64,000 nt of DNA from Myxococcota bacterium. Its GTDB lineage: Bacteria > Myxococcota_A > UBA9160 > UBA6930. A program made the translations under genes and the position numbers. The notes beneath the pieces were generated by a model. It did not search any database. It saw only the letters and a list, made by a program, of their open reading frames with translations, and was not told the origin of the DNA. Positions 13,624 to 30,842 of the stretch are shown here, piece after piece. Each line of letters begins with the position of its first letter. Within the stretch, counting starts at the first letter, position 1. The stretch is taken from contig OZ245002.1 of NCBI GenBank assembly GCA_965223415.1, positions 352,001-416,000 of the forward strand. Direction: 5' to 3'.

Positions 13624-13626
13624 AGG

Positions 13627-13697: not shown

Positions 13698-15938
13698 TCA
13701 GGCCCGGGGCCGAACCAGCAGGGCGAACAGGCCCGTCGCGGCCAGCAGGGGAGCCGTCCAGCCGGCCGCCGCCGGAGAGAGCTGGCCCCCCTGGCCGAGG
13801 GAGGCCGCGACGTCGCCCGCCAGGAGGTAGGAGACGCCGATCACGGCGCACAGCACCAGGTTGCGCGCGGCGGACGGCGGGCGTCGCGAGCGCACCGCGA
13901 CCAGCAGGGCGATGGCCGGGAGCAGCAGGCAGGCCACGGGCCCGGCCAGCTTGCGATGCCACTCGATGCGCAGGGGCAACGCCGGATACCCACTGGCCTG
14001 GGCGGCGTGGATCTCCACGGCGAGGCTGTGGGCGGAGTGGTGCATCGGGTCGATCTCCGCGCGGCGAGCCTCGCCGAGCGCATAACGACCAGGCGGCTCG
14101 ACGCGCTGGAGCCCCCGCTCGGAGATCAGCACCGCCTCGGCCCCGACCAGCTCCCACTCGCCTCCGCCGACGTGACGCGCCTCCCTCGCGTGGATCCGCG
14201 CCGAGGGCAGCCCCGAAGGCCCTACCTCGTACACCACCAGGTCCGGGATTCGCCCCCCGGCGAGGCCGGCGCGGGAGGCGCGCACGAGCTGCCCCTCCAT
14301 GCGATACCAGGCCTCCGTCCCGCCGCCTTCGGCGCGGTCCTTGATGCGCTCCACCTTGATGCGATCGGCCCAGGCGTTGGTGCGGGTGACGAGGGCGTCG
14401 TTGAGCCAGAAGTCGAGTGGAACGATCACGGCGGAGAGGACCAGGACCGGAAGCAGGGCGCGTCCCAGGCGGATGCCGCAGGTCTGCATCGCGAGCAGCT
14501 CCCCACGCACGGTGAGGAGACTCACCGTGAGTGCGCTTCCCGCCAGCAGGCCCATCGGCACCACCCGGGAGGCGAGGAGCGGCGTGCGAGCGGCGTAGAA
14601 GTGGAAGATCTCCCCGACATCGGCGCGGTGTCGCGCGAACCACTCGAGACGTTCGAGCACGTCGATCAGGAAGTAGGCGACGAAGAGTGCGCCGAAGGAG
14701 AGCACCGCCGCGCTCGCGTACACGCCGAGCACGTAGCGGTCGAGCACGTAGCGCACCCCGACCGGCCGCTTCATGGCGTCGGCGCTCGAAGGCGCCGTCC
14801 GATCGGGCTCCTCGTCGAAGGGATCTCGCGCGAGCCGGGCCAGCAGCAGCGCGAGCAGCAGCAGGACCACCCCGGGCGGCGTCCACACCGCCAGCGCCAC
14901 CGGGTTGGAGGGATCGCGGAGCATCGCGTCGGCGAGCTGCACGAGGCCGTAGTAGCCAGCGGTGAGGAAGAGGCCGGCGGCCGCACCGCCCGATCGGGTG
15001 AAGCGACGGCTCGCCAGGGCGAGGGGCGCGGCGAGCACCCCGAGCAGGAGTGCCGCCATGGGATGGGCGAAGCGCCGGTGCAGCTCGGCCTGGACACGCC
15101 GCGGGTCGGGACCCCCGACGGTCGGCTCGAAGCGGGCCAGCGCCCCGGTGGAGAGGGCCGCCAGCTCGTCGCCCGGCGCCTCCTCCTCCGAGAGGTGGAG
15201 ACGCGTCTCGAACTCGTCCACCTCCACGTGCTGGCCGCCGCCGGCCGGCGAGCCGAGCAGCGAGGCGTCCTCGAGGCGCAGCACGAGCTCACCGCGTGCG
15301 GCGGTCTCGACCTGGCCCCGCTCCCCGAACACCGCCTCCGCGATGTCCGGCATCCACAGGAGCACCCCGCGCAGGTCCGTGCCGTCCGCCGAGACCTCCC
15401 GGGCCAGGAGCTGGCGCTCGCCGAACTCGACGACGCTGCCGGCGCTGATCAGCGCCCCGGGCTGCTCGCGCTGAATGCGATCGAAGGTCGCCTCCAGCGC
15501 GGCCCGCGACAGCGGCGCCGCCCACAGGGCCAGCACGGCCGATAGCGCCCAGCCGACGACGGCGACCCCCAGGACCGGGACCACGAGCTGGATCCGCGCC
15601 AGCCCGAGGGACTCCATCGCCAGGACCTCCCGGTCGGCCTTCAGACGTCCCAGCGCCACGAGCACCCCGATCATGACGGCGAAGGGCAGAGTCTGCGCAA
15701 GGACCGGCACGATCTCGAGGCCCGCGATGCGGGCCACGGCCCCCACTCCGAGGCCGCGGTTCACGATCCAGTCGGCGTAGGCGAGAAGACTCTTGGTCAG
15801 GAACGCGACCGAGAGGCCCGCCAGCGCCACGCCCGCCGGAATCGCCACCTCGCGCCGGACCGCCCGGCGCAGGATCCTGCCGAGCCCGGCCTCGCCGGGC
15901 CTGCCGCGACGCGGCTCGATCTGTAGCCCCGCTGCCAC
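13698..15938 (-). CDS. Fused LptF-LptG (YjgP/YjgQ x2) permease; start approximate
   Basis: Two YjgP/Q-like halves: LPFAVMIGVLVALGRLKADREVLAM...ELHRRFAHP and VLDRYVL...RGELLAMQTCG...EWHRKLAGP. Confidence 0.85.
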   Translation of the reverse strand: MAAGLQIEPRRGRPGEAGLGRILRRAVRREVAIPAGVALAGLSVAFLTKSLLAYADWIVNRGLGVGAVARIAGLEIVPVLAQTLPFAVMIGVLVALGRLKADREVLAMESLGLARIQLVVPVLGVAVVGWALSAVLALWAAPLSRAALEATFDRIQREQPGALISAGSVVEFGERQLLAREVSADGTDLRGVLLWMPDIAEAVFGERGQVETAARGELVLRLEDASLLGSPAGGGQHVEVDEFETRLHLSEEEAPGDELAALSTGALARFEPTVGGPDPRRVQAELHRRFAHPMAALLLGVLAAPLALASRRFTRSGGAAAGLFLTAGYYGLVQLADAMLRDPSNPVALAVWTPPGVVLLLLALLLARLARDPFDEEPDRTAPSSADAMKRPVGVRYVLDRYVLGVYASAAVLSFGALFVAYFLIDVLERLEWFARHRADVGEIFHFYAARTPLLASRVVPMGLLAGSALTVSLLTVRGELLAMQTCGIRLGRALLPVLVLSAVIVPLDFWLNDALVTRTNAWADRIKVERIKDRAEGGGTEAWYRMEGQLVRASRAGLAGGRIPDLVVYEVGPSGLPSARIHAREARHVGGGEWELVGAEAVLISERGLQRVEPPGRYALGEARRAEIDPMHHSAHSLAVEIHAAQASGYPALPLRIEWHRKLAGPVACLLLPAIALLVAVRSRRPPSAARNLVLCAVIGVSYLLAGDVAASLGQGGQLSPAAAGWTAPLLAATGLFALLVRPRA

Positions 15939-16024
15939 GTCCGCTATGGTGCCGGCGGCCGGGGCGGGGCGAGACCCTGCCTGCGCGGCCCGCACGGATG
16001 GAAAGAGGGAGGGGAAGCGCGCCC

Positions 16025-16810
16025 GTGAAGGCGATCCTGTTGAGCGCCGGCCAGGGGCGCCGGCTCGCGCGCGCCACCGACGGCGCTCCCAAGTGCCTCG
16101 TGCGGATCCATGGAGGTCGCTCCCTCCTCGAGCTGCAGCTGCGCGCCCTCGCCCGCTGCGGGATCGAGCGGGCCGTCGTGATGGTCGGCTACGGCGCCGA
16201 GCGCGTCGAGTCGGAGCTCTCGCGGGTGGTGGTGCCGGGGCTCAGCGTCGCCACCGAGTACAACCCCTTTTCCGCAACCTCCGACAACCTGGTCACCGCC
16301 TGGCTGGCCCGGGCCGCGATGGACGAGGACTTCCTGCTCCTGAACGGCGACACCCTGTTCGAGGACGGCGTGCTCCAGCGCCTGCTCGCGAGCGCCCGGG
16401 CGCCGGTCTCCCTCGCGACCGCCCGCAAGCCCAGCTACGACGACGACGACATGAAGATCGTCCTCGCGCCGGACGGCAGGCTCCGGGCCATCGGCAAGGT
16501 GCTGCCGGGCCTCAACCCGGACGGCGAAGCCATCGGCATGACCCTCTTCCAGGGCGAGGGCGTCGACGGCTTCCGTCGGGTGCTCGACGAAATCGTGCGG
16601 GCGCCGGAAGCCGGTCGGGCCTGGTACACGTCGGCCCTCGACGGCCTGGCCGGCCGGCTGCGCGTCGAGCCCGTTCCGATCGGCAGCCGTTGGTGGGCGG
16701 AGGTCGACACGGTGAGCGACCTGCGGGCGGTCCGCGATGCCTTCCACCGGCTTGGTGACGACGCCCGACCCGAAGAGACGCCGCAGCGCGCCGCCGCCAG
16801 CTACGCCTAG
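16025..16810 (+). CDS. Phosphocholine cytidylyltransferase-family (LicC-like) nucleotidyltransferase
   Basis: KAILLSAGQGRRL...PKCL; LLNGDTLF; YDDDDMK; WWAEVD. Confidence 0.88.
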   Translation: MKAILLSAGQGRRLARATDGAPKCLVRIHGGRSLLELQLRALARCGIERAVVMVGYGAERVESELSRVVVPGLSVATEYNPFSATSDNLVTAWLARAAMDEDFLLLNGDTLFEDGVLQRLLASARAPVSLATARKPSYDDDDMKIVLAPDGRLRAIGKVLPGLNPDGEAIGMTLFQGEGVDGFRRVLDEIVRAPEAGRAWYTSALDGLAGRLRVEPVPIGSRWWAEVDTVSDLRAVRDAFHRLGDDARPEETPQRAAASYA

Positions 16811-16812
16811 CA

Positions 16813-17988
16813 TCACGAGGGGCCTCCCCCCGCCTCGGACAGCATGGCGAGCCACTTGTCGACGACGGGCGCCACGGCGAAGTCGCGCGCACGACGGCGC
16901 AGGGCTTCCCGGTCCACCGGCTCGTCCAGGGCCGCGTCGATCGCCCGGGCCAGGGCCTCGGGATCGGCGACCGGCACCAGCTGCCCGAGGCGACCGCCGC
17001 GGAGGATCTCCCGCGGTCCGCTGGGGCAATCGGTGCTGACGATGGGGCAGCCGCAGGCCAGGGCCTGGATCAGGACGCCGGGGAGCCCCTCGTAGGCCGA
17101 GGACAGCACGAGCAGGCGCGCGCGCGCCATCCAGGCGAAAGGGTTGTCGCTGTAGCCGGCCAGCTCCAGATCGGCCTCCACGCCCAGGTCTCTCGCCAGC
17201 GTCTCGAGCGCCCGACGCTCGCGCCCCTCGCCGAGCACCACCAGGCGCGCAACGCGCTGCCGTCGCAGCCGGGCGAAGGCCCGGAGGAGGGTCGGGAAGT
17301 CCTTCTGCGCTGCCAGCCGACCCACCGCCAGCAGGACCGGTGGCTCGCCGGGGGCCAGCCACGGATGGGAGAGGGGCTTCGCCGCCGCCGCCTCCACCCC
17401 AGCGAGGCGCAGGGGATTGGGAAGCACGCGGATGCGCTCCCGCGGCAGGTCCGCCACCCGGGCCAGATCGTCGGCCACCCCCTCCGAGACGGCGACGATC
17501 GCGTCAGCGGAGGGATAGGCGGCGCGCACCCACGGGGCGAGCAGCGGGCGGCGCCGGAACGGGAAGCCCGCGTTGCGGACGGCCCGGGAGAGGTGGGTCC
17601 GCTGGCTCACCACGACGGGAATCGGCTGCCGCGCCAGCCGCCGCGCCGCCAGCAGCGAGAGGTTGACGTAGTGGGAAGCGGCGATCGCGGCCCGCGGGCG
17701 AACGCGCCGGAGGTAGCGGGCGAGCGCCGGCGTGCTGGCCAGGGTGCGGCGCCTCTTGCGAGCTCGCACCCACGGCAGCCGCGCCAGCCCGGCGTCGAGC
17801 TCCACCACCCGGATCGGCGGCGGAACCTGCTCGCGGAAGGGCCCGCGAGCGTGGGGCACCACCAGGTCGACGGGGACGCCCCGCTCGGCGATTCCGCCGG
17901 CCAGCGTGAGCATGGTCCGCTGCACGCCGCCCAGGCCCAGGCCCGTCAGCACGATCGCCAGCGGTGCCGGATCGCCTAACGAAGCCAC
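16813..17988 (-). CDS. GT4 family glycosyltransferase
   Basis: LGLGGVQR; VGRLAAQKDFPTL; SSAYEGLPGVLIQALACGCP. Confidence 0.92.
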   Translation of the reverse strand: MASLGDPAPLAIVLTGLGLGGVQRTMLTLAGGIAERGVPVDLVVPHARGPFREQVPPPIRVVELDAGLARLPWVRARKRRRTLASTPALARYLRRVRPRAAIAASHYVNLSLLAARRLARQPIPVVVSQRTHLSRAVRNAGFPFRRRPLLAPWVRAAYPSADAIVAVSEGVADDLARVADLPRERIRVLPNPLRLAGVEAAAAKPLSHPWLAPGEPPVLLAVGRLAAQKDFPTLLRAFARLRRQRVARLVVLGEGRERRALETLARDLGVEADLELAGYSDNPFAWMARARLLVLSSAYEGLPGVLIQALACGCPIVSTDCPSGPREILRGGRLGQLVPVADPEALARAIDAALDEPVDREALRRRARDFAVAPVVDKWLAMLSEAGGGPS

Positions 17989-18650
17989 CGGCGCGCCTCG
18001 ACCACCACGATGAAAACCCGTCGCATCTCGCCTTCGGAACAGGCCAGGGGCCGCACACCGTGCCAGGAGTTCCCGCGGCGCGCGAAGAGCAGGCTCTGGT
18101 TGCCGACGCAGGGGACGGACTCTTCGCGAACGAAGTCCTCGAAGGCGGGGCTGGAGCGGTGGGAGAAACGCCCGCCATCGTCCAGGATACGCGTCTCACC
18201 GCCCCAGGCCGGGTCCCAGCGCTCCGGATCGTTGAAGTAGAAGAGATGGGAGCCGAGCTTCCGGCGCGCGTCGCAGTGGGGCGATACAGAGCGCCCCCGC
18301 GGCGTGTAGTGCCAGTGATAGAGGAGGCGGACGCGGCGGCGGCCGAAGCGCGCGGCCAGGAAGCGCCGGTAGTCCGCTCCCTCGAGCTCCTCGACCAGGC
18401 GGTGCCAGAGCGGGTGCACCGGAAGGTCGGGTCGATAGTCGAGGACGTAGCGATCGTGGGAGGCCTGACCGAAGCGGCGCTTCTTCCCGAACACCGCCTC
18501 GAGCTGCAACGGCTCCGGGAGATGCGCCGCCAGCTCCTGCCACGCCTCCGGACGCAGCGCGGGGCCGGCCTGCCACGGATAGGGGCGGCGCCGCCGGAAG
18601 CTCTTGGCATCCGTCGCGTCGAGGGCCTCCAGATCGAGGAGCGACGTCAC
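17976..18650 (-). CDS. 2OG-Fe(II) oxygenase
   Basis: PHCD...WGGET...NSWHGV...RR facial-triad pattern; GTGA overlap. Confidence 0.82.
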   Translation of the reverse strand: MTSLLDLEALDATDAKSFRRRRPYPWQAGPALRPEAWQELAAHLPEPLQLEAVFGKKRRFGQASHDRYVLDYRPDLPVHPLWHRLVEELEGADYRRFLAARFGRRRVRLLYHWHYTPRGRSVSPHCDARRKLGSHLFYFNDPERWDPAWGGETRILDDGGRFSHRSSPAFEDFVREESVPCVGNQSLLFARRGNSWHGVRPLACSEGEMRRVFIVVVEARRWLR

Positions 18651-20938
18651 GACTCCTCCACGCCCATCAGCGTGCGGAGCCGCGCGGCGACGGCACCGGC
18701 CTCCCGGTGGGGGGTCGCCGGGCCGAGCCGGGGAGGCTCGCCCAGCATCTGCACGCGACCGGCGGCGACCAGCTCGGCGTGGAGGCCCTCCAGGTTGCGG
18801 GTGGGGCGCAGCAGCCCGGCGTCGATCCACCGGGCCAGGTGGCGCGCGAGACCCTGCTGGGGCCGCACGGTGCCGCGATCGTTGGGCCGCTCAGCCACAG
18901 CCCGGGCGAGCAGCCGATCGACGAGACGCCCGCCGAGGCCCCGACCCCGACCAGTCCCCGGAAGCGGCGCCACCAGCACCGGCCGATCCGTGGCACAGGC
19001 CTCCGCCAGCATCGACTCGCTCTCCCCGGTGACCACCAGCAGGTCGCAGTGGGCGAGGAGGCCCAGGTAGGGTGTCTCCGGTCCCGCGGGTCGCCAGGGG
19101 AAGAAGTGGGCATCGGCACCGAGGGCTCGCTCGAGGGCGTGGGTCGCGGGGCCTCCGGTGCGCGGGCTGGTCGTCACCCAGAGGCGGCCTCCGAGCTCCT
19201 TCGCCAGGTCCAAGACGTGGGCCGCGAGGCCGCGCGCCTCCTCGGCACCCAGGCGGTAGCGCGGCGTCTCGCCGCCGACGAGGACACCGATGCGCGGGCC
19301 CACCGGGTCGCCTTCGAAGGTGTCCTTCCAGCGATCCGCGGCCCGCCCGAGCTCCCCATCGCTCACCCGCGAGAGCGGCAGCAACGTCTCGACGCGACGG
19401 GGGTGGGGCCAGAGGCGGGCGTGGCGCGGGGTCACGACGAGATCGAACAGGCCGGCGGCGGCACCGCCCTTGCGCCCCAGGTGGACGACGCGCGTGCGGC
19501 CCTGGGCCCGCTCGCGCACCCACAAGCCGACCGGTGCGGCGCGGCGCCCGGCGGAGATGACCAGGTCCGGCCAGGGCGCCTGGAGCTTCGCCCGCTGGTC
19601 CCGGGACAGGCCCAGGAGCGACGCGCCCCGCAGCCGCGGGTGGAGGTTCCCGAGCCGGCCGAAGTGGAGACGGTGGGTCCGGTAGCTCCAGCCCAGCGCC
19701 TCGGCGAGGCCGACGGCCTGGGTCTCGTTGCCGGCCCGGTCGTCGACGATCACCCAGGTGCGCGGCGTGCCGCGACCGAGGAATCGCCCGCCCTCCACGT
19801 GGCGCACGCGACCCGTGGGCTCGTGGACGAACAGCTCCCAGTGCACGCCGCGGTGGGTGCGAGCGATGCGTTCGAAGCGGTCGACGAAGCGCGCCGTCGC
19901 GTCACCGGGCGTGGCGGCGACGAACACGAAGCGGCCCGCCGCGTCGAACAGGCGCCGCAGCGCCCAGCCCTGATCGGTCTCGGGCAGGGCTTCGAGCCCA
20001 GCGGGCACGAGGATGCCGTCGGCGCTCCGGGCCTCCGATGCGAACAGCCAGTCGAGGAGGTCCGCCCCCTCCAGCTCGAGCACCTCGTCGCCGGGGGTGA
20101 GGCGCGAGAGCATGCGCAGCATCTGTCGGTCCGCCGCAGGCGCCGCGGGAAGGGAGGGCCGGCCGCGCAGGTGACCCATCGCCTCGCTCGGCTGCTCCGC
20201 CGAGAACGCCTCGAAGCCCGCATCGTCGGCCCGGCGTTCCCTCTCCTTCCAGAGATCGGCGCCGGGCCCTTCGCGGTAGGCGAAGCGCTCGGGAAAGGGC
20301 CGCCACGGCTGGGTGTGCAGCGTCGTGTAGTGGACGACCCGAGCGCCCCCGTTCAGCAGCTCGGCGTCCCGTGCGTTCCACTCAGGAGGCAGCGGGCCGC
20401 GAAGGCCCGCCACGGCGGCGGCTCGCGCCACCAGCTCCTTCTTCGGCAGCCGGCTGGCGTCGTCCAGGCTCCACACGTCCGCCATCCGCGCGCAATCGAG
20501 CAGCATGACCGAGGTCTCCCGATCCGAGAGGGCCAGGAAGCCGTGACCCTCCAGATCGCGATCGAAGAGCTCCGCCGGATCGCACAGGTAGAGCTGGTCC
20601 ACGTCGTTGTAGATGGCCCGGCCGGCAGCGCCGGCGAAGCTGGGAATCGCGAAACGGTAGTTCGTGAACCCGGTGGTCCAATCCCGGCGGTCGAAGCCGC
20701 GCAGCGCCTCCATGCGGAAGACCTCGTAGCGGCGCGCCCGATCGCGGTGCTCGGCGACGGAGGCCAGGAACACCCGCTCCGCCCGCCACTGGGCCGGCTC
20801 GGTCCCGAGGAAGATGCGCACGGGAGGCGCTTCCGTCTCGCCCTCGGCGGGGAACACCACGCGCTCGGGCCCGTCCCGCAGGCCCGGCCCCGGCGCAGCG
20901 CCGCGGAGGGGGAGGAAGCGGGAGAGCCTCCGACTCAT
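18647..20938 (-). CDS. GT-A (GT8-like) glycosyltransferase fused to an ELM1/GtrOC1-like domain
   Basis: TGFTNYRFAIP...RAIYNDVDQ...HYTTLHTQPW; C-terminal AGNETQAVGLAEALG, PWPDLVISAGRR, TTSPRT, VTGESESMLAEA. Confidence 0.82.
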   Translation of the reverse strand: MSRRLSRFLPLRGAAPGPGLRDGPERVVFPAEGETEAPPVRIFLGTEPAQWRAERVFLASVAEHRDRARRYEVFRMEALRGFDRRDWTTGFTNYRFAIPSFAGAAGRAIYNDVDQLYLCDPAELFDRDLEGHGFLALSDRETSVMLLDCARMADVWSLDDASRLPKKELVARAAAVAGLRGPLPPEWNARDAELLNGGARVVHYTTLHTQPWRPFPERFAYREGPGADLWKERERRADDAGFEAFSAEQPSEAMGHLRGRPSLPAAPAADRQMLRMLSRLTPGDEVLELEGADLLDWLFASEARSADGILVPAGLEALPETDQGWALRRLFDAAGRFVFVAATPGDATARFVDRFERIARTHRGVHWELFVHEPTGRVRHVEGGRFLGRGTPRTWVIVDDRAGNETQAVGLAEALGWSYRTHRLHFGRLGNLHPRLRGASLLGLSRDQRAKLQAPWPDLVISAGRRAAPVGLWVRERAQGRTRVVHLGRKGGAAAGLFDLVVTPRHARLWPHPRRVETLLPLSRVSDGELGRAADRWKDTFEGDPVGPRIGVLVGGETPRYRLGAEEARGLAAHVLDLAKELGGRLWVTTSPRTGGPATHALERALGADAHFFPWRPAGPETPYLGLLAHCDLLVVTGESESMLAEACATDRPVLVAPLPGTGRGRGLGGRLVDRLLARAVAERPNDRGTVRPQQGLARHLARWIDAGLLRPTRNLEGLHAELVAAGRVQMLGEPPRLGPATPHREAGAVAARLRTLMGVEES

Positions 20939-22626: not shown

Positions 22627-22630
22627 GGCG

Positions 22631-23881
22631 TCAGGCCGCCCGTAGCGCGCGCGCGACCTGGGCCAGACGCACGCCGTGGAAGAGGAGCGTCGCCGCCTGC
22701 CAGGCCACGACGGCGAGGAAGGCGGGCCCGGCCAGGCCGACGAGCAGTCCGACGGTGAAGAGCGGCACGTTGATGTTGCGCCGCGAGATGAAGGTGCGCA
22801 TGCGCACGTCGATGGGCGCCCAGGCGTGGATCGATCGTCCGCCGGTCAGCCGGGTGAAGACCTCGGTGACGAGGCGGTCCGCTACGTAGAAGCCCGTCAT
22901 CCACCAGGCGGCCGTGAGCCAGGCGCCGCCTCCGAGACCCGCCGCCCAGGCCAGGTACCAGAGCGGCGGATGCACCACGTCGAGCCCGTGGTCGAGCACG
23001 TGGCCGAGCTTCGACGCCCGGTGGGTGAGGCGCGCGAGCTTGCCGTCCACCGAATCGAGGACGCTCATGGTGTAGGCGAGGACGAGCCCCGGCAGCCAGG
23101 CGGCGCTGGCAAAGAGCGGGATCGCGGCGAAGGTGATGACGACGTTGAAGCCGGACACCCAGTTCGGGTGCACGCGATGCCGCGCGAGCGGTCGCAGCAG
23201 GCGCCACACGAGCGGCGGGTAGACGTGCTTCGTGAAGAAGTCCGTCGATCCCTTGTAGTTCGCCTCGAAGAGGAAGCGCTCGCTGCGATCGCGCTCGACG
23301 TCGCCGGCGATGCGGAAGACCCAGGGCGTCAGGTGGCGGCGCAGCTTCGGCAGATAGGACGGGGCGCGTTCCGCAGGCTCCGGGAGGAGGCTGCCGCTCA
23401 GGGTCCAGGCTCGGGCGAGCTCGTCGAGGTCCCGCGCCTCCGGTGCATCCGGCGGAGCGCCTTCGAGCCGCAGCAGCGCCGAGGGCTGCCCGCAGCCCGG
23501 TGTCGGCGCCGAGCCGCGCACGACATGGGGGCCGCGCAGCGAAGCCAGATGGGCGAGCAGGCGCGGGTCGACGATCGCGTCGGCCTCGAGCACGAGGAGC
23601 GCCGGCACGCGGGCGGCGACCTCGGCGGCCCGCTTCGCGAGCGGGCCCTCGCCGGGGCGGCGCGTGACGTGCAGGCCGTCCAGGTCCCGGGGCAGCGGCA
23701 GGGCCGCGCCGGCGCGCTCGTGGACCTCCACCCGCGCGCCGGCGAGGCCCGCGTCGAGCAGGGCCCGGAGCGCGTGCTCGAGCAGCGACATCCCGAACAG
23801 ACGTCGGCCGCTGGTGGCGCGGGTGGCTTCCACGAGGACGTCGACGCCGCTGCCGTCGGCGTCGGTCCCCTCGGGTATCAT
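22631..23881 (-). CDS. CDP-alcohol phosphatidyltransferase with degenerate N-terminal NTP-transferase-like domain
   Basis: VHPNWVS; LDSVDGKLAR...S.LGHVLDHGLD. Confidence 0.88.
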   Translation of the reverse strand: MIPEGTDADGSGVDVLVEATRATSGRRLFGMSLLEHALRALLDAGLAGARVEVHERAGAALPLPRDLDGLHVTRRPGEGPLAKRAAEVAARVPALLVLEADAIVDPRLLAHLASLRGPHVVRGSAPTPGCGQPSALLRLEGAPPDAPEARDLDELARAWTLSGSLLPEPAERAPSYLPKLRRHLTPWVFRIAGDVERDRSERFLFEANYKGSTDFFTKHVYPPLVWRLLRPLARHRVHPNWVSGFNVVITFAAIPLFASAAWLPGLVLAYTMSVLDSVDGKLARLTHRASKLGHVLDHGLDVVHPPLWYLAWAAGLGGGAWLTAAWWMTGFYVADRLVTEVFTRLTGGRSIHAWAPIDVRMRTFISRRNINVPLFTVGLLVGLAGPAFLAVVAWQAATLLFHGVRLAQVARALRAA

Positions 23882-23890
23882 CGGCGCAGG

Positions 23891-24730
23891 ATGCTAGCGA
23901 ACCGGGATGAAATCTCGCGGAAGGAGGGGCGGGACGCTGGCGTGCTGGCCTTCCTGCTGGCCGGGCGGCGGCGCGGTGGCGACGCCCTGGCCGAGGCCGC
24001 CGGGGTGAGCCACAAGGCGCGCATCCCGGTCGCCGGCGTGGCGATGGGCGTGCGCGTGCTACGGGCCCTCGGCGCCTCGGAGCGGGTGAGCGAGACCTGG
24101 CTGTGCATCGACGATCCGGAGCTCGGCCACCACGACGAGGTGGCGTCGGCTCGGGACCGGGGAGAGCTGCGCATCCATCCGCCCGCGCCTTCGCCCAGCG
24201 AGAGCGTCGGGAGCCTGCTCGCGCAGCTCCCCTCGCCGCGGCCGGTCCTCGTCACCACCGCCGATCACCCGCTGCTGGACGCGGCGATGATCGATCACTT
24301 CCTGGCCGACGCCTCCGGCCGCGACGCGGACGTCGTGGTGGGCGTCGTCCCCGAGACGACGGTGCGCGCCCGCTACCCGGACGTGCGACGCACCTTCGTG
24401 TCGCTGGCCGGCGAGCGCATCACCGGCGCGAACCTGTTCCTGCTGCGAACCCCCCGGGCCGCGCAGGCGGTGGCGTTCTGGCGGGAGATGGACGCCCACC
24501 GCAAGCAGCCCTGGCGCCTGGCCGCCCGGGTCGGACCCGCCGCCCTGGCCCGGCTCGCCCTCGGCCGCCTCGACCTCGACGGGGCCGTCGCCCGCATCGC
24601 CCGCCGCGCCGGCGTGCGTGCCGAAGCCGTCCGCCTCCCCTTTCCCGAGTGCGCCCTCGACGTCGATCTCCCCGAGCACCTCACCCTCGCCGAGCAGATC
24701 CTCCAGAGGCAACAGGCGAGACGTTCCTGA
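23891..24730 (+). CDS. Nucleotidyltransferase (MobA/NTP_transf_3-like); alternative GTG start 23942
   Basis: LLAGRR...HKARIPVAG; LVTTADHPLL; GANLF; LDVD. Confidence 0.82.
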   Translation: MLANRDEISRKEGRDAGVLAFLLAGRRRGGDALAEAAGVSHKARIPVAGVAMGVRVLRALGASERVSETWLCIDDPELGHHDEVASARDRGELRIHPPAPSPSESVGSLLAQLPSPRPVLVTTADHPLLDAAMIDHFLADASGRDADVVVGVVPETTVRARYPDVRRTFVSLAGERITGANLFLLRTPRAAQAVAFWREMDAHRKQPWRLAARVGPAALARLALGRLDLDGAVARIARRAGVRAEAVRLPFPECALDVDLPEHLTLAEQILQRQQARRS

Positions 24731-24750
24731 ACGCAACGCCCGGGTCGCGT

Positions 24751-25623
24751 TCAGGGCAGCCCAAAGGGCTCGCCCTCTTCGAAGCGAGTGCGGGAGGGGT
24801 CGAGAACACGGGCGCGGCAGGCCCAGCCACCTTCGGGGCGGGGCTCGAGCAGGTGGTAGCGGGCGCGCCGATCGGAGCCCTTGTGGCCGAGGGCGGAGGC
24901 CGAGGGCACGCCGACGACGGGGATCGGCCCGCTCGGACCGGGCAGCTGGGTGGTGACGAAGCGGTGGACGTGCCCGTGGACGACGAGCTCCGCACCGGCC
25001 CGGGAGAGCAGCGCGACGAGCTCTGCCGCGTCGTCCAGCCCGCGGCGGCGGCGGATGCCGGCGGTCCATGGGGGGTGGTGGATCAGGACGATCCTCCGCA
25101 GACCTGCGCGCTCGAGGCCCCGCAGGCAGCGCTCGAGCTGCAGCCTTCCGACCGGCCCGACCCGACCCGTCGCCAGGCCCGGGGCGGTGGGCCGCGCCGA
25201 GTGCACACCGACGAGCGCCACTCCGTCCTGCACGCGCACCGGCGGCGTCGACGCGGGATCGCCCGCGAGGAACGGCCCGAAGGCGCTCCCCATGGCGCGC
25301 CGAGAATCCCCGGCGTAGACGTCGTGGTTCCCCGGCACGAGGAAGACCCGCTCCGGCCCCCCGAGTCGCTCGAGCCAGCCCCGGCCCGCGTCGAGCTCGC
25401 CGGGCAGGCCCTGGTTCGTCACGTCGCCGGTCACGAGCACGCGGTCGGGCGCCGTCCGCTCGAGGTCCCCCAGCAACGCCTCGAGCACCTCGGGCCGATG
25501 CTCGCCCCGCCGCCGGGCGAGCCAGGCCAGCGCTCCGAGCAGGCGCTTCGTCGTCACCTCGGACGGCCGGCGCCAGCGGGGCGGCGTCACGTGGAGATCC
25601 GAGAGATGGGCGAGGAGCGGCAC
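24751..25623 (-). CDS. Calcineurin-like metallophosphoesterase
   Basis: HLSDLH, TGDVTN, VPGNHD, HHPP, HGHVH. Confidence 0.93.
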   Translation of the reverse strand: MPLLAHLSDLHVTPPRWRRPSEVTTKRLLGALAWLARRRGEHRPEVLEALLGDLERTAPDRVLVTGDVTNQGLPGELDAGRGWLERLGGPERVFLVPGNHDVYAGDSRRAMGSAFGPFLAGDPASTPPVRVQDGVALVGVHSARPTAPGLATGRVGPVGRLQLERCLRGLERAGLRRIVLIHHPPWTAGIRRRRGLDDAAELVALLSRAGAELVVHGHVHRFVTTQLPGPSGPIPVVGVPSASALGHKGSDRRARYHLLEPRPEGGWACRARVLDPSRTRFEEGEPFGLP

Positions 25624-25717
25624 GCTGGGCGCAGGATCGGCGCCCCTTCATCCCGTCGCCAGGGTCGTATGGTACCGTCCTGGCCTGGTCCAGAGGCGTT
25701 CGGAGGGGGATCGGCGC

Positions 25718-26908
25718 GTGCCCGAGGCCCAGAGTGGGGCTCTTCAGCCCCAGCACAGCGGTGCGCCCGGCGTCTGGGTAACGCCGCCGCGGGAGGCCAC
25801 CCGGCTGTTCGGCGCCTCGCCGACGGAGCGCCTGCGCCGGGCCCTGGCGGGCAGCCCGGCGTTCTCGAGCGACGGCGAGCCGCCGCCGCCCGAGCGCGCC
25901 CGCCGCTGGCTGGTGCTGCGCGGCGACTTCGTCTTCGACGGACGCCTGATCGAGGCCCTCGGCAAGACCCGGGATGTGGTGCTGCTCGCCCGCCCCGAGG
26001 ACGGGAGCGTCCCGGTCGCCGCCCACGTGCGCGGCGGCCAGCTTCAGCAGGCCGCGGCCTGGGTGCGGGACGGCAAGCCCCCCCTGGCCGACGGCATCGC
26101 CCTCGCCCGCCCCGAAGACCTGGTGCATCCCTACGACTCCCGGCTCCGCAAGCGCCAGCCGGCCATCCTGGCGCGGGTGACGGCGGAGACCGCGCCGGCC
26201 CTCGAGGCCACCCTCTTCGACGCCGCCTACAAGGGCGTGACCGACTGGGTCACCCGCACCCTGTGGCCCGTCCCGGCGTTGCGACTGACCCGGACCCTGG
26301 CGAACCGGGGCGTGACACCGAACGCGGTCACCCTGGCGAGCTGGCTGCTCGTGCTGGGGGCCCTGGCCGCCTTCACCGGCGGAGCGTTCGGCGCGGGCCT
26401 CCTGGCCGCGTGGGCGATGACCTTCCTCGACACGGTCGACGGCAAGCTCGCCCGCGTCACCCTCACGTCGAGCCGCCTCGGCCACGTGCTGGACCACGGC
26501 CTCGACCTGGTCCATCCGCCCTTCTGGTGGTGGGCCTTCGGCACCGCCGCGGCGGCCCTCCCGGATGCGCTGGCCGGCGCTTGGCTTCCCCTGGCGACCT
26601 GGACCTGCGTCGTCGGCTACGTCGTGGGCCGCGCCCTGGAAGGCGCCTTCCTGGCAGGCTTCGGCTTCGAGATCCACTCCTACCGTCCCGTCGACTCCTG
26701 GTTCCGCCGCTTCACGGCCCGCCGCAATCCCAACCTCGTGCTGCTGAGCGCCGCCACCCTGGTCGGGCGTCCCGAGCTGGGCATCCTCGCGGTCGCCGGG
26801 TGGACGGTGGCGTCGATCGGATTCCACGCGCTGCGCCTGGCCGCTGCGGGCCTGTGCCGGCTGCGGGGCGAGGCGGTCGTGCCCTGGGAGGAAGCGGCGT
26901 GGGCGTGA
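25718..26908 (+). CDS. Second CDP-alcohol phosphatidyltransferase (paralog of 22631..23881)
   Basis: YKGVTD; TPNAVT; FLDTVDGKLAR...LGHVLDHGLDLVHPP; ARRNPN. Confidence 0.88.
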   Translation: MPEAQSGALQPQHSGAPGVWVTPPREATRLFGASPTERLRRALAGSPAFSSDGEPPPPERARRWLVLRGDFVFDGRLIEALGKTRDVVLLARPEDGSVPVAAHVRGGQLQQAAAWVRDGKPPLADGIALARPEDLVHPYDSRLRKRQPAILARVTAETAPALEATLFDAAYKGVTDWVTRTLWPVPALRLTRTLANRGVTPNAVTLASWLLVLGALAAFTGGAFGAGLLAAWAMTFLDTVDGKLARVTLTSSRLGHVLDHGLDLVHPPFWWWAFGTAAAALPDALAGAWLPLATWTCVVGYVVGRALEGAFLAGFGFEIHSYRPVDSWFRRFTARRNPNLVLLSAATLVGRPELGILAVAGWTVASIGFHALRLAAAGLCRLRGEAVVPWEEAAWA

Positions 26909-27969
26909 TCACCCGCGCGCTCGTGCTGGCCGCGCTGGGGGCGGCCCTGTCGGTTGTGCCGTCGCTGGCCGCGGAGAACCTGGCCGCCGCGCGCCTTCTC
27001 CGGAGCGAGCTGGGCTCGGAGTTCTGGAACCTGACGGCCCGCTTCGAGAGCGGTGAGCACCTGATGGTCGAGGTCTGCGTCACGAACGTCGGGCTCGGCG
27101 ACGGTAACGCGGCGGTCATCGGGCACCTCGTCGAGGCCGACGGCACGGTCCACGCCTTCGACGGCGCCAAGGCGGCCGGCGAGTGGTCCCTCTCGGACGA
27201 TCGGCTCCAGCTCGTGTTGGGCAAGCTCGAGCTCGATCAGCGGGGGCCCGTGCACCGGCTGCGCCTGCTCAAGGAACGGATGGGGATCGACCTCGCCTTC
27301 CGGGCCACCGGCGAGCACGTGCGCCTGGCGGGGGCGGAAGACAAGCGCGGCTTCGAGCTGCTGGGCGTGGAGAGCGAAGTCGCCGGCCGCATCTGGACCG
27401 AGAACGGCGGCGAGCGCTCCGTGCGTGGGCGACTCCTGCGCACGCACCGCTGGGCGGAGGGGCTCGAGTCCTCCTTCGTGCTGCGCCGCATCGAGCTCTT
27501 CACCCTGGACGGCGAGACCGGCGTCTACCTGGTGGAGGCCCTCGACCCCTCCGGCGGGACCCAGAGCTGGCTGCGCATCCAACGGGGCGAGGAGGCGCTC
27601 AGCGCCGTGCCGGTCACGACGCGGGTGGTCTGGGCCGAAGACGCGGGGCCGCCGGGCTTTCCGCTCCCCCAGGCCGTCGAGATCGAGGGCGAGGGCGTTC
27701 GCGGACGCTTCCTGCTGGCGAACGACCTGGTGCGCTACGACCCGCTCCGGGACCTGCCCGCCGCGGTACGCTGGGGCCTCGCCCCCTTCATCCGCTGGCG
27801 CACGGCGTGGAGTGCGGGCTCCTTCGAGCTGCAGCTGGGCGCGGACGCCGGGGGGCCCCTCCAGCTCCGCGGACGCGGAATGTCCAACGTGACCTACTTC
27901 AACGCGGTGTCGGAGGCGCAGAGCGTCGCCTCACCGCCCGCCGAGGTGACATGCGGATCGGAGTGCTGA
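26905..27969 (+). CDS. Secreted beta-rich hypothetical protein (lipocalin/AttH/Svf1-like fold suspected)
   Basis: GTGA overlap; signal peptide; SEFWNLTARFESG..MVEVCVTNVG. Confidence 0.65.
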   Translation: MITRALVLAALGAALSVVPSLAAENLAAARLLRSELGSEFWNLTARFESGEHLMVEVCVTNVGLGDGNAAVIGHLVEADGTVHAFDGAKAAGEWSLSDDRLQLVLGKLELDQRGPVHRLRLLKERMGIDLAFRATGEHVRLAGAEDKRGFELLGVESEVAGRIWTENGGERSVRGRLLRTHRWAEGLESSFVLRRIELFTLDGETGVYLVEALDPSGGTQSWLRIQRGEEALSAVPVTTRVVWAEDAGPPGFPLPQAVEIEGEGVRGRFLLANDLVRYDPLRDLPAAVRWGLAPFIRWRTAWSAGSFELQLGADAGGPLQLRGRGMSNVTYFNAVSEAQSVASPPAEVTCGSEC

Positions 27970-28898
27970 CGAACCTGAGCGCCGGGGGACGTCACCGGGC
28001 GGCCCACGCGGTGCTCGCGGAAGCCGACCGCCACGCTTCGGTGATCCAGCGCGAGACCGCCGGCAGCCAGATGGTGCCGGACGCGGTGGCGGAGTTCGCG
28101 GACCGGGGCGTCGACGTCCTCGTGGTCAACGGAGGCGACGGCACCCTCCAGCGGGCGTTGACCGAGGTGCTCGGGCACACACCTGGCTGGCGCCCGAAGA
28201 TCGCGCCGCTGCGGAGCGGGCGGACGAACATGGCAGCCCTCGACGTCGGGGCCGGTCGCACCCCCGCAGCGGGCCTCCGCAGTCTGGTGGACGACGCTCA
28301 GCAGGGACGCATCGCCGAGCGGGTCGTGCGGCGGCCGGTGCTGTGCATGGAGCTGGTCGGGGAGGAGCCGCCCCACTACGGGATGTTCTTCGGGGCCGGC
28401 GTCATCTGTCGCGCCATCCAGCTCACCCACCAGGCCTTTCCGAAGGGCAAGGCCCAGGGCGTGTTCGGCTCGTCCCTGGTCACCGGCACGCTACTGGCCC
28501 AGCTGCTCTCGGGGCGTCGGGCGGGAGTCCTCGCGCCGGACAAGGTGCAGCTGACCCTCGACGAGCAGCCCGCCGGCGCCGACGCCTACACCCTGGTGAT
28601 CGCCACGACCCTCGAGCGCCTGTTCCTGCGCATGCGTCCCTTCTGGGGGACGGGGCCGGGACCCGTGCGTCTGACGACGATGACCGCGGGCGTCCGCGGG
28701 CTCGGGCGCGCCCTGCCGCGCATCCTGCGGGGCAGGGCGCCGGCCGGGCCGGCGGAAGGCCTCGAGAGCCGCAACGCCCGGGAGGGCCGGTTCCGACTCG
28801 ACTGCGACGTGTCCCTGGACGGCGAGCTCTTCGGGCCCCGCGAGACACGGGTCGTGCGGCTATCGGCGCCGGAACAGATCGAGTTCCTGCGGGTGTGA
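27951..28898 (+). CDS. Diacylglycerol/sphingosine/ceramide kinase family protein
   Basis: LTNLSAG; VVNGGDGT; PLRSGRTN; LDGE. Confidence 0.88.
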   Translation: MRIGVLTNLSAGGRHRAAHAVLAEADRHASVIQRETAGSQMVPDAVAEFADRGVDVLVVNGGDGTLQRALTEVLGHTPGWRPKIAPLRSGRTNMAALDVGAGRTPAAGLRSLVDDAQQGRIAERVVRRPVLCMELVGEEPPHYGMFFGAGVICRAIQLTHQAFPKGKAQGVFGSSLVTGTLLAQLLSGRRAGVLAPDKVQLTLDEQPAGADAYTLVIATTLERLFLRMRPFWGTGPGPVRLTTMTAGVRGLGRALPRILRGRAPAGPAEGLESRNAREGRFRLDCDVSLDGELFGPRETRVVRLSAPEQIEFLRV

Positions 28899-29794
28899 CG
28901 ACCGCCCTCGCCGAGCGCGTGTCCGAGGAGCTGGCGGGGCCGGCTCCGGAGGAGGCCCGCGTCCTGGCCGAGGCCCTGGCGCGACGCTTCGGCGCCGCGA
29001 CCGCGGCGGTGCTCTTCTACGGGTCGTGCCTGCGGCGGAGCAGCGGCGAAGGCGTGCTCGACTTCTACGTCCTCGTGAGCGACTACCGCCGGGCCTATCC
29101 GTCGCGCTGGCTCGCCCTGCTCAATCGCACGCTCCCCCCTAACGTCTTCAACGTCGAGTGCGAGCACGTTGGAGACACGGTTCGGGCGAAGGTCGCGGTG
29201 CTGTCCGTGGATCACTTCGAGAGCGCGGTTTCACCGCGGTGGGTCGAGGCGCGGGTGTGGGCGCGCTTCGCGCAGCCGGCGCGGCTCCTGTACGCGCGCG
29301 ACGAGGAGACGCGAAGGGCCGTCGTCCGCGACGTGGCCGCGGCGGTGCGGACCTTCGTCGGGCATCTCCCGGCCTGGCTGCCGGATCCGCCGCTGACCGC
29401 CGACCGCTTCTGGCCGGCGGCCTTCGCCGAGACGTATCGGGCGGAGCTGCGAAGCGAACGCCCGGAGACCATCCGGGCGCTCTACGACGCCGCGCCGGCC
29501 CGCTACGCCGAGATGCTGGAGCTGGCGCGCAAGGAGCCGGACGCAGCCCACGATCCGACCGCGGACGAGGTCCGGCGCCGCTGGCGTCGGTGCCGGATCA
29601 CCGGCAAGGCCTGGTCGACCCTGGGCCTCCTGAAGTGCGTCTTCACCTTCGACGACTGGGCCGGCTACGCCCTGTGGAAGCTCGAGCGCCACCGGGGCCG
29701 CCCGATCCCGATCAGCGACCGCCAGCGCCGCCACCCCCTGCTGTTCGGGTGGCCCATCCTCTGGCACCTCCTCCGCACCCGCACCCTCCGCTGA
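28895..29794 (+). CDS. Tam41/Mmp37-like cytidylyltransferase (pol-beta NTase fold)
   Basis: VLFYGSC...VLDFYVLVSDY; LNRTLPPNVF; WARFAQP; SYxxxxR-like TYRAELRSE. Confidence 0.72.
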   Translation: MTTALAERVSEELAGPAPEEARVLAEALARRFGAATAAVLFYGSCLRRSSGEGVLDFYVLVSDYRRAYPSRWLALLNRTLPPNVFNVECEHVGDTVRAKVAVLSVDHFESAVSPRWVEARVWARFAQPARLLYARDEETRRAVVRDVAAAVRTFVGHLPAWLPDPPLTADRFWPAAFAETYRAELRSERPETIRALYDAAPARYAEMLELARKEPDAAHDPTADEVRRRWRRCRITGKAWSTLGLLKCVFTFDDWAGYALWKLERHRGRPIPISDRQRRHPLLFGWPILWHLLRTRTLR

Positions 29795-29810
29795 ACCCGA
29801 CAGGGGACGT

Positions 29811-30842
29811 TCAGGAGGCGAACAGGCTGGCCAGGGCGGGGGCCAGGCCGCGGACCTCGGCGGCGCGGTAGGGGGAGGTCTGGGGGAGCTCGCGGCACAG
29901 GGCGCGGTGGACGTGGCCGAGGCTGTGGTAGGGGAGCGTCGGGGCGAAGTGGTGGAGCGCGTGGTAGCGCAGACCGACCGGAGCCAGGAGCGCCATCACC
30001 GGCGCGGGGTGCACGAGGTTCACGGTGTCGAGCAGCTCGCCGATGCGGTCCTGGGGCTCGCCGCCGCTCCGGTAGCGGTGGGCGGCCAGCGTGCGCACGT
30101 GGTTGAGCCACAGGATGGCAGCGGTGACCGCGTACCACTGGACGAGCGCGATGCCCGGGAGCGCGCCGGAGGCGAAGCTGGCGATCGCCGCCACTACCAC
30201 CACGCTGCAGCCGAGCTCGCCGATCCACCAACGCCGGCGTTGGCGCCCGAGCGGCGACCGACGACGATACGCCGCGTTGATCACCAGGGTCGAGAGGCGC
30301 TCCACCAGGAAGCGACGCAACGGCGGGACGAGCCAGGAGAGGGGGCCCAGGAGGCCCCAGCGCAGCACGAGCGCCGCCGGCACCAGCACCAGGCCGAGGG
30401 AGCTCGCCACGAGCCGCAGCGCACTCCAGTCCGCCAGCGTCTCGTACTCCGGGTCCCCGGCGGTGCCGTACACGCCCTTGCGATGGTGGTCGCCGTGGGA
30501 GCCGAAGTAGAGCAGGCTCGGAGCCAGCAGGGGAAAGCCCACCAGCAGGTGCCAGGCCGCCTCGAAGCCCGGCAGGGCCCCGCGCTTGAGGTGGGCGAGC
30601 TCGTGGATGAAGAGGACGGCCCGGTAGAGGCCGAGCACCGCGCAGGTGCCAGCCGCCAGCGCGCCGATCGAGAACGGCGGCAGCCCCAGCGCCAGGAAGA
30701 ACCCGCCCCACCCCACCGCGACCGAGAGCAGCAGGTCGGCCCAGTAGAAGCCGGGCCGCGGCAGGAAGGCGTCGCGATGGGCGCGGCGCAGCGCACCGAT
30801 CGAGAGCGCGGGATCGGGCACCGGAGTGGGTGACGTGGGCAC
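29811..30842 (-). CDS. Membrane fatty acid (lipid) desaturase
   Basis: His boxes HELAH, HGDHH, YHALHH. Confidence 0.9.
   Translation of the reverse strand: MPTSPTPVPDPALSIGALRRAHRDAFLPRPGFYWADLLLSVAVGWGGFFLALGLPPFSIGALAAGTCAVLGLYRAVLFIHELAHLKRGALPGFEAAWHLLVGFPLLAPSLLYFGSHGDHHRKGVYGTAGDPEYETLADWSALRLVASSLGLVLVPAALVLRWGLLGPLSWLVPPLRRFLVERLSTLVINAAYRRRSPLGRQRRRWWIGELGCSVVVVAAIASFASGALPGIALVQWYAVTAAILWLNHVRTLAAHRYRSGGEPQDRIGELLDTVNLVHPAPVMALLAPVGLRYHALHHFAPTLPYHSLGHVHRALCRELPQTSPYRAAEVRGLAPALASLFAS

Follow-up and report, generated by a model that had tools for sequence, protein, structure and literature searches.

A 64-kb stretch of DNA from a Myxococcota bacterium (the window; contig OZ245002.1, positions 352,001 to 416,000) carries a densely packed gene cluster of about 20 kb, at 12.8-33 kb, in which start and stop codons overlap. 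The cluster encodes a soluble lipid kinase, a Tam41-fold nucleotidyltransferase, two further nucleotidyltransferases (NT1 and NT3), two CDP-alcohol phosphotransferases, a metallophosphoesterase, a lipocalin-like protein, glycosyltransferases, an oxygenase, a desaturase-family protein, an ABC exporter and a fused LptFG permease (Table 1). We read it, with a probability of about 60%, as the portion of a phosphosphingolipid pathway responsible for head-group assembly and for export, the pathway being of the kind encoded by the ceramide phosphoglycerate (cpg) cluster of Caulobacter, in an expanded form. This reading builds on the observed gene families, intact motifs, folds and kept gene order, and on the linkage of related loci to the ceramide genes spt, cerS and cerR.

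Gene content and packing of the cluster

The G+C content of the window is about 72%, which swamps plain lists of open reading frames (ORFs): 114 ORFs of at least 80 amino acids (aa) lie within 10-35 kb, many of them spurious. Genes were therefore called from third-position GC (GC3) and frame plots. Each call was checked with Pfam and NCBIfam, and 50 window proteins were scanned overall. Related loci were collected by scanning one genome per species with the alignment of the Tam41-like protein, which gave 587 confirmed relatives; the best 80 are the loci L001 onward. Occurrence of the single genes in these 80 loci was counted by tblastn (E<=1e-8, coverage >=40%), and all such counts are lower bounds, with many of the loci on short contigs. 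For a survey of the neighbouring genes, 1,132 ORFs from the 80 loci were clustered, and representatives were scanned with Pfam. Myxococcota-type (n = 19) and Binatia-type (n = 14) loci were assigned by hand. There is no Caulobacter sequence among the 80 loci; the Dongia soli locus L061, which has the printed Caulobacter order, served as a proxy.

Table 1. Genes of the cluster and its flanks, with window coordinates, strand and supporting evidence
Feature	Coordinates	Strand	Evidence and remarks
DUF6502 protein	12787..13650	-	PF20112 E 9.9e-33; directly downstream of LptFG, same strand; start uncertain; possible unit member
Fused LptF-LptG permease, 765 aa	13698..15995	-	Pfam LptF_LptG E 1.3e-106, two stretches
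NTP transferase NT1, CpgD/CC_1152 counterpart	15998..16810	+	NTP_transf_3 E 3.7e-12; NTP_transferase E 4.1e-8
GT4 glycosyltransferase	16813..17988	-	Glycos_transf_1 E 3.5e-33; Glyco_transf_4 E 6.9e-24; lineage-specific addition
2-Oxoglutarate (2OG)-Fe(II) oxygenase, prolyl-4-hydroxylase (P4H)-like	17976..18653	-	2OG-FeII_Oxy_3 E 1.9e-6 (weak); start from frame plot and translation; lineage-specific addition
GT8-ELM1 fusion, 763 aa	18647..20938	-	GT8-like N-terminus, middle of unassigned kind, C-terminal ELM1 PF06258 (Mito_fiss_Elm1 E 3.2e-58)
ABC exporter, candidate flippase	20935..22626	-	Transmembrane domain and ATPase; ABC_tran E 1.7e-31; ABC_membrane E 3.1e-14
CDP-alcohol phosphotransferase 1, 416 aa	22631..23881	-	PF01066 E 1.5e-9; N-terminal domain of about 230 aa without known kind; motif DSVDGKLARLTHRASKLGHVLDHGLD
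MobA-like NTP transferase NT3, CC_1153 counterpart	23942..24730	+	Pfam NTP_transf_3 E 3e-10; relatives in 38/80 loci
Calcineurin-like metallophosphoesterase, CC_1158 counterpart	24751..25623	-	Pfam Metallophos E 7e-15; relatives in 45/80 loci
CDP-alcohol phosphotransferase 2, 396 aa, positional CpgA/CC_1159 counterpart	25718..26908	+	PF01066 E 6e-9; motif DTVDGKLARVTLTSSRLGHVLDHGLD
AttH/CrtC-fold double-barrel lipocalin-like protein, 354 aa	26905..27969	+	Fold; between transferase 2 and kinase
Soluble lipid kinase, DAGK_cat/LCB5 type, CpgB counterpart	27951..28898	+	Pfam DAGK_cat E 1.4e-9; GGDG motif
Tam41-fold nucleotidyltransferase, 299 aa, CpgC counterpart	28895..29794	+	Fold and bridging family member
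Membrane fatty-acid desaturase/hydroxylase family protein	29811..30842	-	FA_desaturase E 1.2e-22; three His boxes in sequence
Short-chain dehydrogenase/reductase (SDR), FabG-like	30897..31652	-	adh_short_C2 E 1.8e-64; NCBIfam matches all below cutoff; start uncertain
Amidohydro_2 protein	31649..32833	-	PF04909 E 3.5e-20; upstream in SDR/desaturase run; start from translation

The minus-strand run from 23881 to 16813 comprises transferase 1, the ABC exporter, the ELM1 fusion, the oxygenase and GT4, with gaps of at most 4 nucleotides or overlapping codons. The ABC stop and the ELM1-fusion start share an ATGA overlap, and the start of the GT4 gene overlaps the stop of the oxygenase gene. On the plus strand, from 25718 to 29794, transferase 2, the AttH-fold gene, the kinase and the Tam41-like gene follow each other, with GTGA overlaps at 26905 and 28895. 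A further minus-strand run, from 32833 to 29811, holds the amidohydrolase, SDR and desaturase genes. An earlier sequence-only reading had drawn the unit at 13698..30842, and each gene type on its list was recovered within these bounds, by Pfam and NCBIfam or, for Tam41, by fold. The list was nevertheless incomplete, as it overlooked the AttH-fold gene, and its bounds are probably too narrow at both ends: the unit likely extends to the DUF6502 gene on one side and to the SDR and amidohydrolase genes on the other.

The kinase was found in 76 of the 80 loci, directly upstream of the Tam41-like gene and on the same strand in 74 of these 76, and its GGDG motif is invariant in the kinase alignment (A4). 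The partner protein was assigned by structure. Its AlphaFold (AF2) model has a pLDDT (predicted local distance difference test) of 87.6, and the five top-ranked Foldseek matches are Tam41 CDP-diacylglycerol synthases throughout (E 1.7e-6 to 8.5e-6; 6ig4 E 1.7e-6 and 7ecd E 5.9e-6, TM 0.55/0.59), matched with a probability of 1.00, TM (template modelling) 0.46-0.59 over 277-288 alignment columns and 13-16% identity. The next fold family, aminoglycoside nucleotidyltransferases (ANT(4')), reaches a TM of at most 0.36. Furthermore, P0280, which belongs to the family with E 3e-88 against profile A1, passes Pfam Tam41_Mmp37 with 34.3 versus 24 bits. Judged by the predicted fold and this bridging relative, the label Tam41-like from the sequence-only reading holds, though not by any direct Pfam or PDB sequence match of the window protein.

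The Tam41-like (CpgC) family is large, with 5,961 proteins at E<=1e-3 among 8,000 candidates scored and 1,620 clusters at 50% identity, and extends to metagenome-assembled genomes (MAGs) of Myxococcota, Binatia and Desulfobacterota type. The protein database contains natural fusions of a DAGK_cat kinase with a Tam41-like domain (P0323, 662 aa) and of a MobA-like nucleotidyltransferase with a Tam41-like domain (P0256, 594 aa). A predicted complex of the separate kinase and Tam41-like proteins scored 0.01 against a mark of 0.32, with controls not run, and speaks neither for nor against an interaction.

Both CDP-alcohol phosphotransferases score above the 22-bit Pfam cutoff and are complete for D-x2-D-G-x2-A-R-x8-G-x3-D-x3-D, which we take to be the signature of the CDP-alcohol phosphotransferases. 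To judge from their tree, they belong to two deeply separated paralogue clades. Transferase 2 falls into a 41-row clade of copies upstream of kinases (100% support), and transferase 1 into a separate 12-row clade (100% support) made up of the window, L002-L004, four Binatia and four Dongia-type loci. Relatives of each were found in 45/80 loci. Their best NCBIfam models are the synthases of archaetidylinositol phosphate and PIP, which they match at E 1e-10 to 3e-10 without reaching a cutoff.

NT1 has its best PDB sequence match in 4jd0 (E 1.5e-8) and relatives in 18/80 loci. The same structure is the top hit named for CpgD in PMC12275187. NT3 has just one solved relative, TTHA0179, an uncharacterised protein of Thermus thermophilus (PDB 2dpw, E 1.1e-19). 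As in L061, the metallophosphoesterase gene directly precedes the transferase-kinase-Tam41 run and is read from the opposite strand.

The product of the overlooked gene has no Pfam match (best DUF7064, E 0.37). Its AF2 model (pLDDT 85.9) matched AttH in Foldseek (2ich, E 6.6e-13, TM 0.57-0.64), followed by fungal Diels-Alderases, kievitone hydratase and 25-phosphosteroid lyase, and CrtC or Svf1 occurs in 16-63% of the members of its atlas neighbours. The N-terminus is hydrophobic and signal-like by inspection. Relatives occur in 23/80 loci. Based on the modelled fold, the protein should be an exported double-lipocalin that binds or acts on a hydrophobic molecule. With the AttH/CrtC/Svf1 superfamily it shares the fold, and all solved members of that superfamily bind hydrophobic small molecules; it differs in being only 9-13% identical to them, in lacking a Pfam match, in being exported and in its position inside a lipid head-group operon.

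For export, the fused LptFG reaches 247.8 bits against the cutoff of 240 for LptG (TIGR04408) and 227.3 against 230, just below, for LptF. It was found in 25/80 loci by tblastn and in 44 loci by ORF clustering. The ABC exporter had been called MsbA-like. It keeps the MsbA-type architecture, but an MsbA orthologue is ruled out by scores far under the equivalog cutoffs (TIGR02203, 209.1 versus 602 bits; PRK11176, 169 versus 867 bits); its best model is the HepA family, with 245.7 versus 725.

The N-terminus of the ELM1 fusion looks like a GT8 glycosyltransferase in sequence comparisons. For the first 260 residues, 26 of 30 matches in the atlas (language-model neighbours) lie in GT8-carrying clusters, with a score of 0.97, and D112 and D114 of its NDVDQ stretch are invariant in alignment A3. 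The Pfam GT8 match is weak (E 0.17, 11.9 versus 24.3 bits), and a 7-row profile of the fusion found no match in the PDB. The oxygenase is closest in the PDB to a prolyl-4-hydroxylase-domain protein (9ei6, E 7e-10). Desaturase relatives occur in 20/80 loci, and in Binatia loci the gene is placed between the Tam41-like gene and cerR-spt-cerS.

Among the flanking genes, the SDR is 81% identical to a gene at the equivalent place in L003, has relatives in 14/80 loci and is probably co-transcribed with the desaturase. DUF6502 relatives occur in 2/80 loci (L045 and L060), right after the Tam41-like gene. The amidohydrolase, with relatives in 4/80 loci at 23-24% identity, is doubtful as a member of the unit.

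Kinship with the Caulobacter cluster and conservation of the order

Clusters of this kind are already known from Caulobacter, in papers from 2022 to 2026. PMC9393093, PMC11324152, PMC12275187 and PMC10331486 describe a ceramide (di)phosphoglycerate cluster, CC_1152-CC_1168, in Caulobacter crescentus, with cpgABCD and lptF2/G2. In the printed order (PMC11324152), CC_1152 is a nucleotidyltransferase (CpgD), CC_1153 a MobA/CofC-like nucleotidyltransferase, CC_1154 the ceramide synthase bCerS, CC_1155/56 LptG/F copies, CC_1157 a HIT protein and CC_1158 a calcineurin-like phosphoesterase. [quoted passage not shown]

The kinship with this region that the sequence-only reading had proposed is borne out. 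The window has counterparts of CpgA, CpgB, CpgC, CpgD, CC_1153, CC_1158 and LptF2/G2, and its core order of MobA-like nucleotidyltransferase, metallophosphoesterase, CDP-alcohol phosphotransferase, kinase and Tam41-fold enzyme is the one printed for Caulobacter (PMC11324152), shared with CC_1158-CC_1161 and with L061. In both clusters the Tam41-like gene comes after the kinase, and a PF01066 transferase that carries an N-terminal cytoplasmic domain is encoded shortly before the kinase; the metallophosphoesterase is encoded on the other strand, and LptF/LptG are linked to the cluster. Both also combine a MobA/CofC-like with an IMPCT-like nucleotidyltransferase, 4jd0 being the best solved relative of NT1 as well as of CpgD. 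The Dongia soli locus repeats the exact Caulobacter order, down to HIT (E 1.8e-5) and spt-acp-cerR-aasR, and has a single additional transferase. The window proteins are 24-46% identical to the members of this locus: 29% for the kinase, which falls into one BLAST cluster with its counterpart, 42% for the Tam41-like protein, and 41%, 46% and 40% for the CpgD-type and CC_1153-type nucleotidyltransferases and the CC_1158-type phosphoesterase, respectively.

In contrast to Caulobacter, the window lacks spt, acp, cerR, aasR and cerS, as well as LptC2, HIT and a CC_1167-type gene. LptF and LptG are fused, and instead of the Wzx-like CC_1166 there is an ABC exporter. The extra genes are those for a second CDP-alcohol phosphotransferase clade, the AttH-fold protein, the GT8-ELM1 fusion, GT4, the P4H-like oxygenase and the adjacent desaturase. 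The host also differs: it is related to Myxococcota MAGs, with 72% GC, and is not an alpha-, beta- or gammaproteobacterium.

Two other systems offer a comparison. With the mitochondrial and Firmicutes Tam41/Mmp37 CDP-diacylglycerol synthases (6ig2, 6ig4, 7ecd), the window protein shares a nearly full-length fold match, but at 13-16% identity and with ceramide-1-phosphate rather than phosphatidate as its likely substrate. The archaeal and Thermotoga IPCT/DIPPS system follows the same logic of soluble cytidylyltransferase, membrane CDP-alcohol phosphotransferase and phosphatase. The window differs in showing no MIPS gene, in having a metallophosphoesterase in place of a HAD phosphatase, and in its kinase and Tam41-like step, which those systems lack.

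The gene order is also kept across phyla, and the clustering is therefore, as far as gene order can tell, more than chance. Binatia locus L016 is collinear with the window across ten genes: ELM1(-), ABC(-), CDP-alcohol phosphotransferase(-), MobA(+), metallophosphoesterase(-), CDP-alcohol phosphotransferase(+), AttH-like(+), kinase(+), Tam41-like(+) and desaturase(-), after which it continues directly into cerR-spt-cerS. L009 has most of the window order; it lacks the first CDP-alcohol phosphotransferase, has two additional genes separating MobA from the metallophosphoesterase, and also runs into cerR-spt-cerS. This triad is present in 11 of the 14 Binatia-type loci. L002, L003 and L016 retain ELM1, ABC and transferase 1 in that order, and L009 keeps ELM1-ABC beside the core. 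In a quick tree of the Tam41-like proteins, based on Shimodaira-Hasegawa-like approximate likelihood-ratio (SH-aLRT) support alone and leaving out four of the 80 loci (Tam41-like ORF mis-called or shorter than 220 aa), the window lies beside L001-L003 in a clade of 29 rows (100% support), which these Binatia loci share.

Among the neighbours absent from the window, the commonest in the ORF clusters scanned with Pfam were Aminotran_1_2 (Spt-like), GNAT (bCerS-like), an epimerase-family reductase (CerR-like), AMP-binding (AasR-like) and acyl carrier protein (ACP) genes. By tblastn, 40 of the 80 loci have an Spt-like gene within 10 kb, 34 a CerS-like, 33 a CerR-like, 21 an AasR-like and 22 an ACP gene. 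In the Binatia chromosome assemblies L023 and L056, the Spt-like gene is matched by tblastn over its full coverage, at 91-95% identity to that of a neighbour, yet it is broken into small ORFs, possibly by assembly frameshifts or a flaw of the ORF filter. An Aminotran_1_2 gene at the edge of L038 was rejected as Spt (best BLASTP E 0.058 against 36 Spt-like proteins). Desulfobacterota-type loci L035 (~8357-9307), L037, L033 and L039 have a Lip_A_acyltrans gene (E 1.2e-57) adjoining the kinase/Tam41-like pair, together with bCerS-like and CerR-like genes; no Spt-like gene was called there in the ORF clustering.

The neighbours in Myxococcota-type loci include an SDR, a thiolase-like gene, HIT, and a PlsB-type glycerol-3-phosphate acyltransferase (GPAT_C E 2.8e-77) which in two loci (L018, 16458-18851, and L047) is separated from the downstream end of the cluster by a few genes. 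In seven of these loci (L008, L019, L020, L038, L047, L053 and L065) a KdsA/AroG-like DAHP_synth_1 gene (E 1.2e-64) adjoins NT1 or the MobA-like nucleotidyltransferase. Its product might provide those lineages with a 3-deoxy-ulosonate phosphate as precursor of the head group; the window has no relative of this gene.

Proposed pathway and the question of the lipid anchor

According to the phosphosphingolipid reading, ceramide made elsewhere in the genome would be phosphorylated by the soluble kinase. The Tam41-fold enzyme would then activate the ceramide-1-phosphate with CTP, by analogy with Tam41, which forms CDP-diacylglycerol from phosphatidate and CTP. From the activated lipid, or from CDP-alcohols made by NT1 and NT3, the two membrane CDP-alcohol phosphotransferases would build a phosphodiester-linked head group, and the metallophosphoesterase would remove a terminal phosphate. 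The GT8-ELM1 fusion and GT4 could attach sugars, and the P4H-like oxygenase and the desaturase-family enzyme could modify the head group or the chains. Finally, the ABC exporter would flip the product, the fused LptFG would extract it towards the outer membrane, and the exported AttH-fold lipocalin would bind or modify the lipid in the periplasm. We infer ceramide as the anchor in the window organism, and likewise the substrates, the order of the steps and the head group, with the roles in glycosylation, hydroxylation and desaturation taken from family names.

For the head group there are two suggestions. The likeness of NT1 to CpgD suggests, by analogy, glycerate. The nearest named models of the transferases, all below cutoff, together with the lipid of Myxococcus xanthus, suggest inositol phosphate. 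Because Thermus makes glycerate-containing phosphoglycolipids (phosphatidyl-glyceroyl-alkylamine glycolipids), the NT3 family may, again by analogy, activate a glycerate-type acid both in Thermus and in the window organism.

A bolder extension, which we hold only tentatively and consider rather improbable in full, is that the window and its collinear Binatia and Myxococcota relatives specify a self-contained "sphingo-LPS" (LPS, lipopolysaccharide). The product, a ceramide both glycosylated and multiply phosphodiester-linked, would be made via CDP-ceramide from the Tam41-fold enzyme on the cytoplasmic face and handled by a dedicated ABC flippase, a dedicated fused LptFG and, in the periplasm, an AttH-fold carrier. 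The transferase 1 clade, absent from the printed Caulobacter list, would couple CDP-ceramide to the first head-group alcohol. Our literature search found no mention of CDP-ceramide as a nucleotide-activated sphingolipid.

Several findings weigh against the phosphosphingolipid reading. The Tam41-fold protein of the window matches no Pfam family at E<=10 and stays below the threshold of PF09139 (Tam41_Mmp37), phmmer and a 26-row profile retrieved nothing relevant among PDB sequences, and the TM-scores of the fold match are only 0.5-0.6. The likeness to Caulobacter rests on the printed gene order and on the Dongia soli proxy. No gene for ceramide synthesis was seen in the window. The Spt-, CerS-, CerR-, AasR-, ACP- and Wzx-like families of the related loci were used as tblastn queries against the 64-kb window, in which no spt, cerS, cerR, aasR or acp was detected (none at E<=1e-3, and no Aminotran_1_2 among the 50 proteins). 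The sequence-only reading was thus right about the absence of a serine palmitoyltransferase. Its proposal of a related but more elaborate phosphosphingolipid stands for the extra genes, which are present; a sphingolipid in the window organism is not borne out by the window or by the Myxococcota-type loci. None of the 19 Myxococcota-type loci has spt, cerS, cerR, aasR or acp within the available flanks of up to 10 kb, about half of them with the full 10 kb on each side. In addition, the known substrate of Tam41, a CDP-diacylglycerol synthase by its PDB titles, is phosphatidate.

The lack of nearby ceramide genes and the Tam41 reaction fit a glycerolipid anchor, in a Myxococcota branch that left sphingolipids: the kinase would make phosphatidate from diacylglycerol, the Tam41-fold enzyme CDP-diacylglycerol, and the transferases and glycosyltransferases an unusual phosphoglycolipid exported by ABC and LptFG. 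The PlsB-type acyltransferase near the cluster in L018 and L047 and the origin of NT3's sole solved relative in Thermus, a genus with such phosphoglycolipids, point in the same direction. So does the in vitro activity of CpgB, which phosphorylates diacylglycerol about as well as ceramide (PMC10331486). Nevertheless, we consider this alternative unlikely. PlsB/C and CdsA already yield phosphatidate and CDP-diacylglycerol, which leaves a dedicated kinase/Tam41 pair unexplained, and the Binatia loci collinear with the ten-gene block lead directly into cerR-spt-cerS. The missing linkage would also not be exceptional, as sphingolipid genes are normally scattered in Sphingomonadales, according to PMC11324152. 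In the literature, CpgB is a ceramide kinase, almost every genus with cpgB either makes or encodes sphingolipids (PMC10331486), Myxococcus xanthus is stated to make ceramide phosphoinositol (PMC9246714), and Myxococcota_A are prominent among potential sphingolipid producers in the Black Sea (PMC11334938). The literature search found no paper pairing the ceramide of Myxococcus xanthus with bCerS, and the matches listed for sphingolipids or ceramide in Binatia were all unrelated.

The window could also be a mosaic, in which a compact cpg-like core (23942-29794) happens to lie beside a housekeeping LptFG and a polysaccharide or LPS-core unit (ABC, ELM1, oxygenase and GT4), serving different lipids. 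The LptG half of the permease passes the housekeeping equivalog cutoff, and LptFG could thus be the only LPS permease of the cell. Relatives of GT4 and of the oxygenase occur in only one of the 80 loci each, and these enzymes may serve another pathway despite their overlapping codons; those of the ELM1 fusion and the ABC exporter occur in 9 and 19 loci. The KdsA-like genes of the seven Myxococcota-type loci indicate that LPS-type genes do neighbour the cluster. On the other hand, transferase 1 shares its tight minus-strand run with the ABC, ELM1, oxygenase and GT4 genes, and the order of ELM1, ABC and transferase 1 recurs in other loci, as described above. The divergent pair of fused LptFG and NT1 is kept in the Myxococcota-type loci L007, L008 and L065, and the Caulobacter cluster itself has extra LptF/G copies (PMC11324152). 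A mosaic seems to us slightly less probable still than a glycerolipid anchor.

Other features of the window and significance

Outside the cluster, the window encodes two multihaem cytochrome c7/c3-type proteins (428-1300 and 7489-9126; Cytochrome_C7 E 7.6e-17 and 5.6e-30), which suggest a metal- or sulfur-respiring life style. Between them (5414-7477) lies the gene for a 687-aa protein in which Sel1 repeats precede a long ankyrin-repeat array (Ank_2 E 1.1e-65), an architecture unusual for a bacterium. Past the amidohydrolase, an ArsR/HTH_34 regulator is followed by a Rieske/VanA-like oxygenase (34387-35887), with no link to the cluster seen. Further downstream are two neighbouring large DUF3604 paralogues (48359-52896; ORFs of 800 and 745 aa), and an ECF sigma factor with an NrsF-type anti-sigma factor, beside an anti-sigma-like zf-HC2 protein that weakly matches bactofilin (60091-63826).

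In the Caulobacter papers, the chemistry of CpgC, CpgA, CC_1153 and CC_1158 is left open, and one of them states that CpgC homologues are found only in Caulobacterales and Sphingomonadales. The literature searched, which leaves most subscription journals outside, did not reveal the collinear block of Myxococcota and Binatia, the second transferase clade, the AttH-fold protein, the GT8-ELM1 fusion or the Tam41-like fusion proteins. The breadth of the CpgC family, its Tam41 fold and its fusions to a kinase or to a MobA-like nucleotidyltransferase make a mechanism via CDP-ceramide directly testable. The transferase 1 clade, the AttH-fold protein, the GT8-ELM1 fusion and the ABC exporter are new candidates for flipping and periplasmic handling, and the ten-gene block, expanded and collinear, suggests an outer-membrane sphingolipid of greater complexity in phyla that have been little studied.

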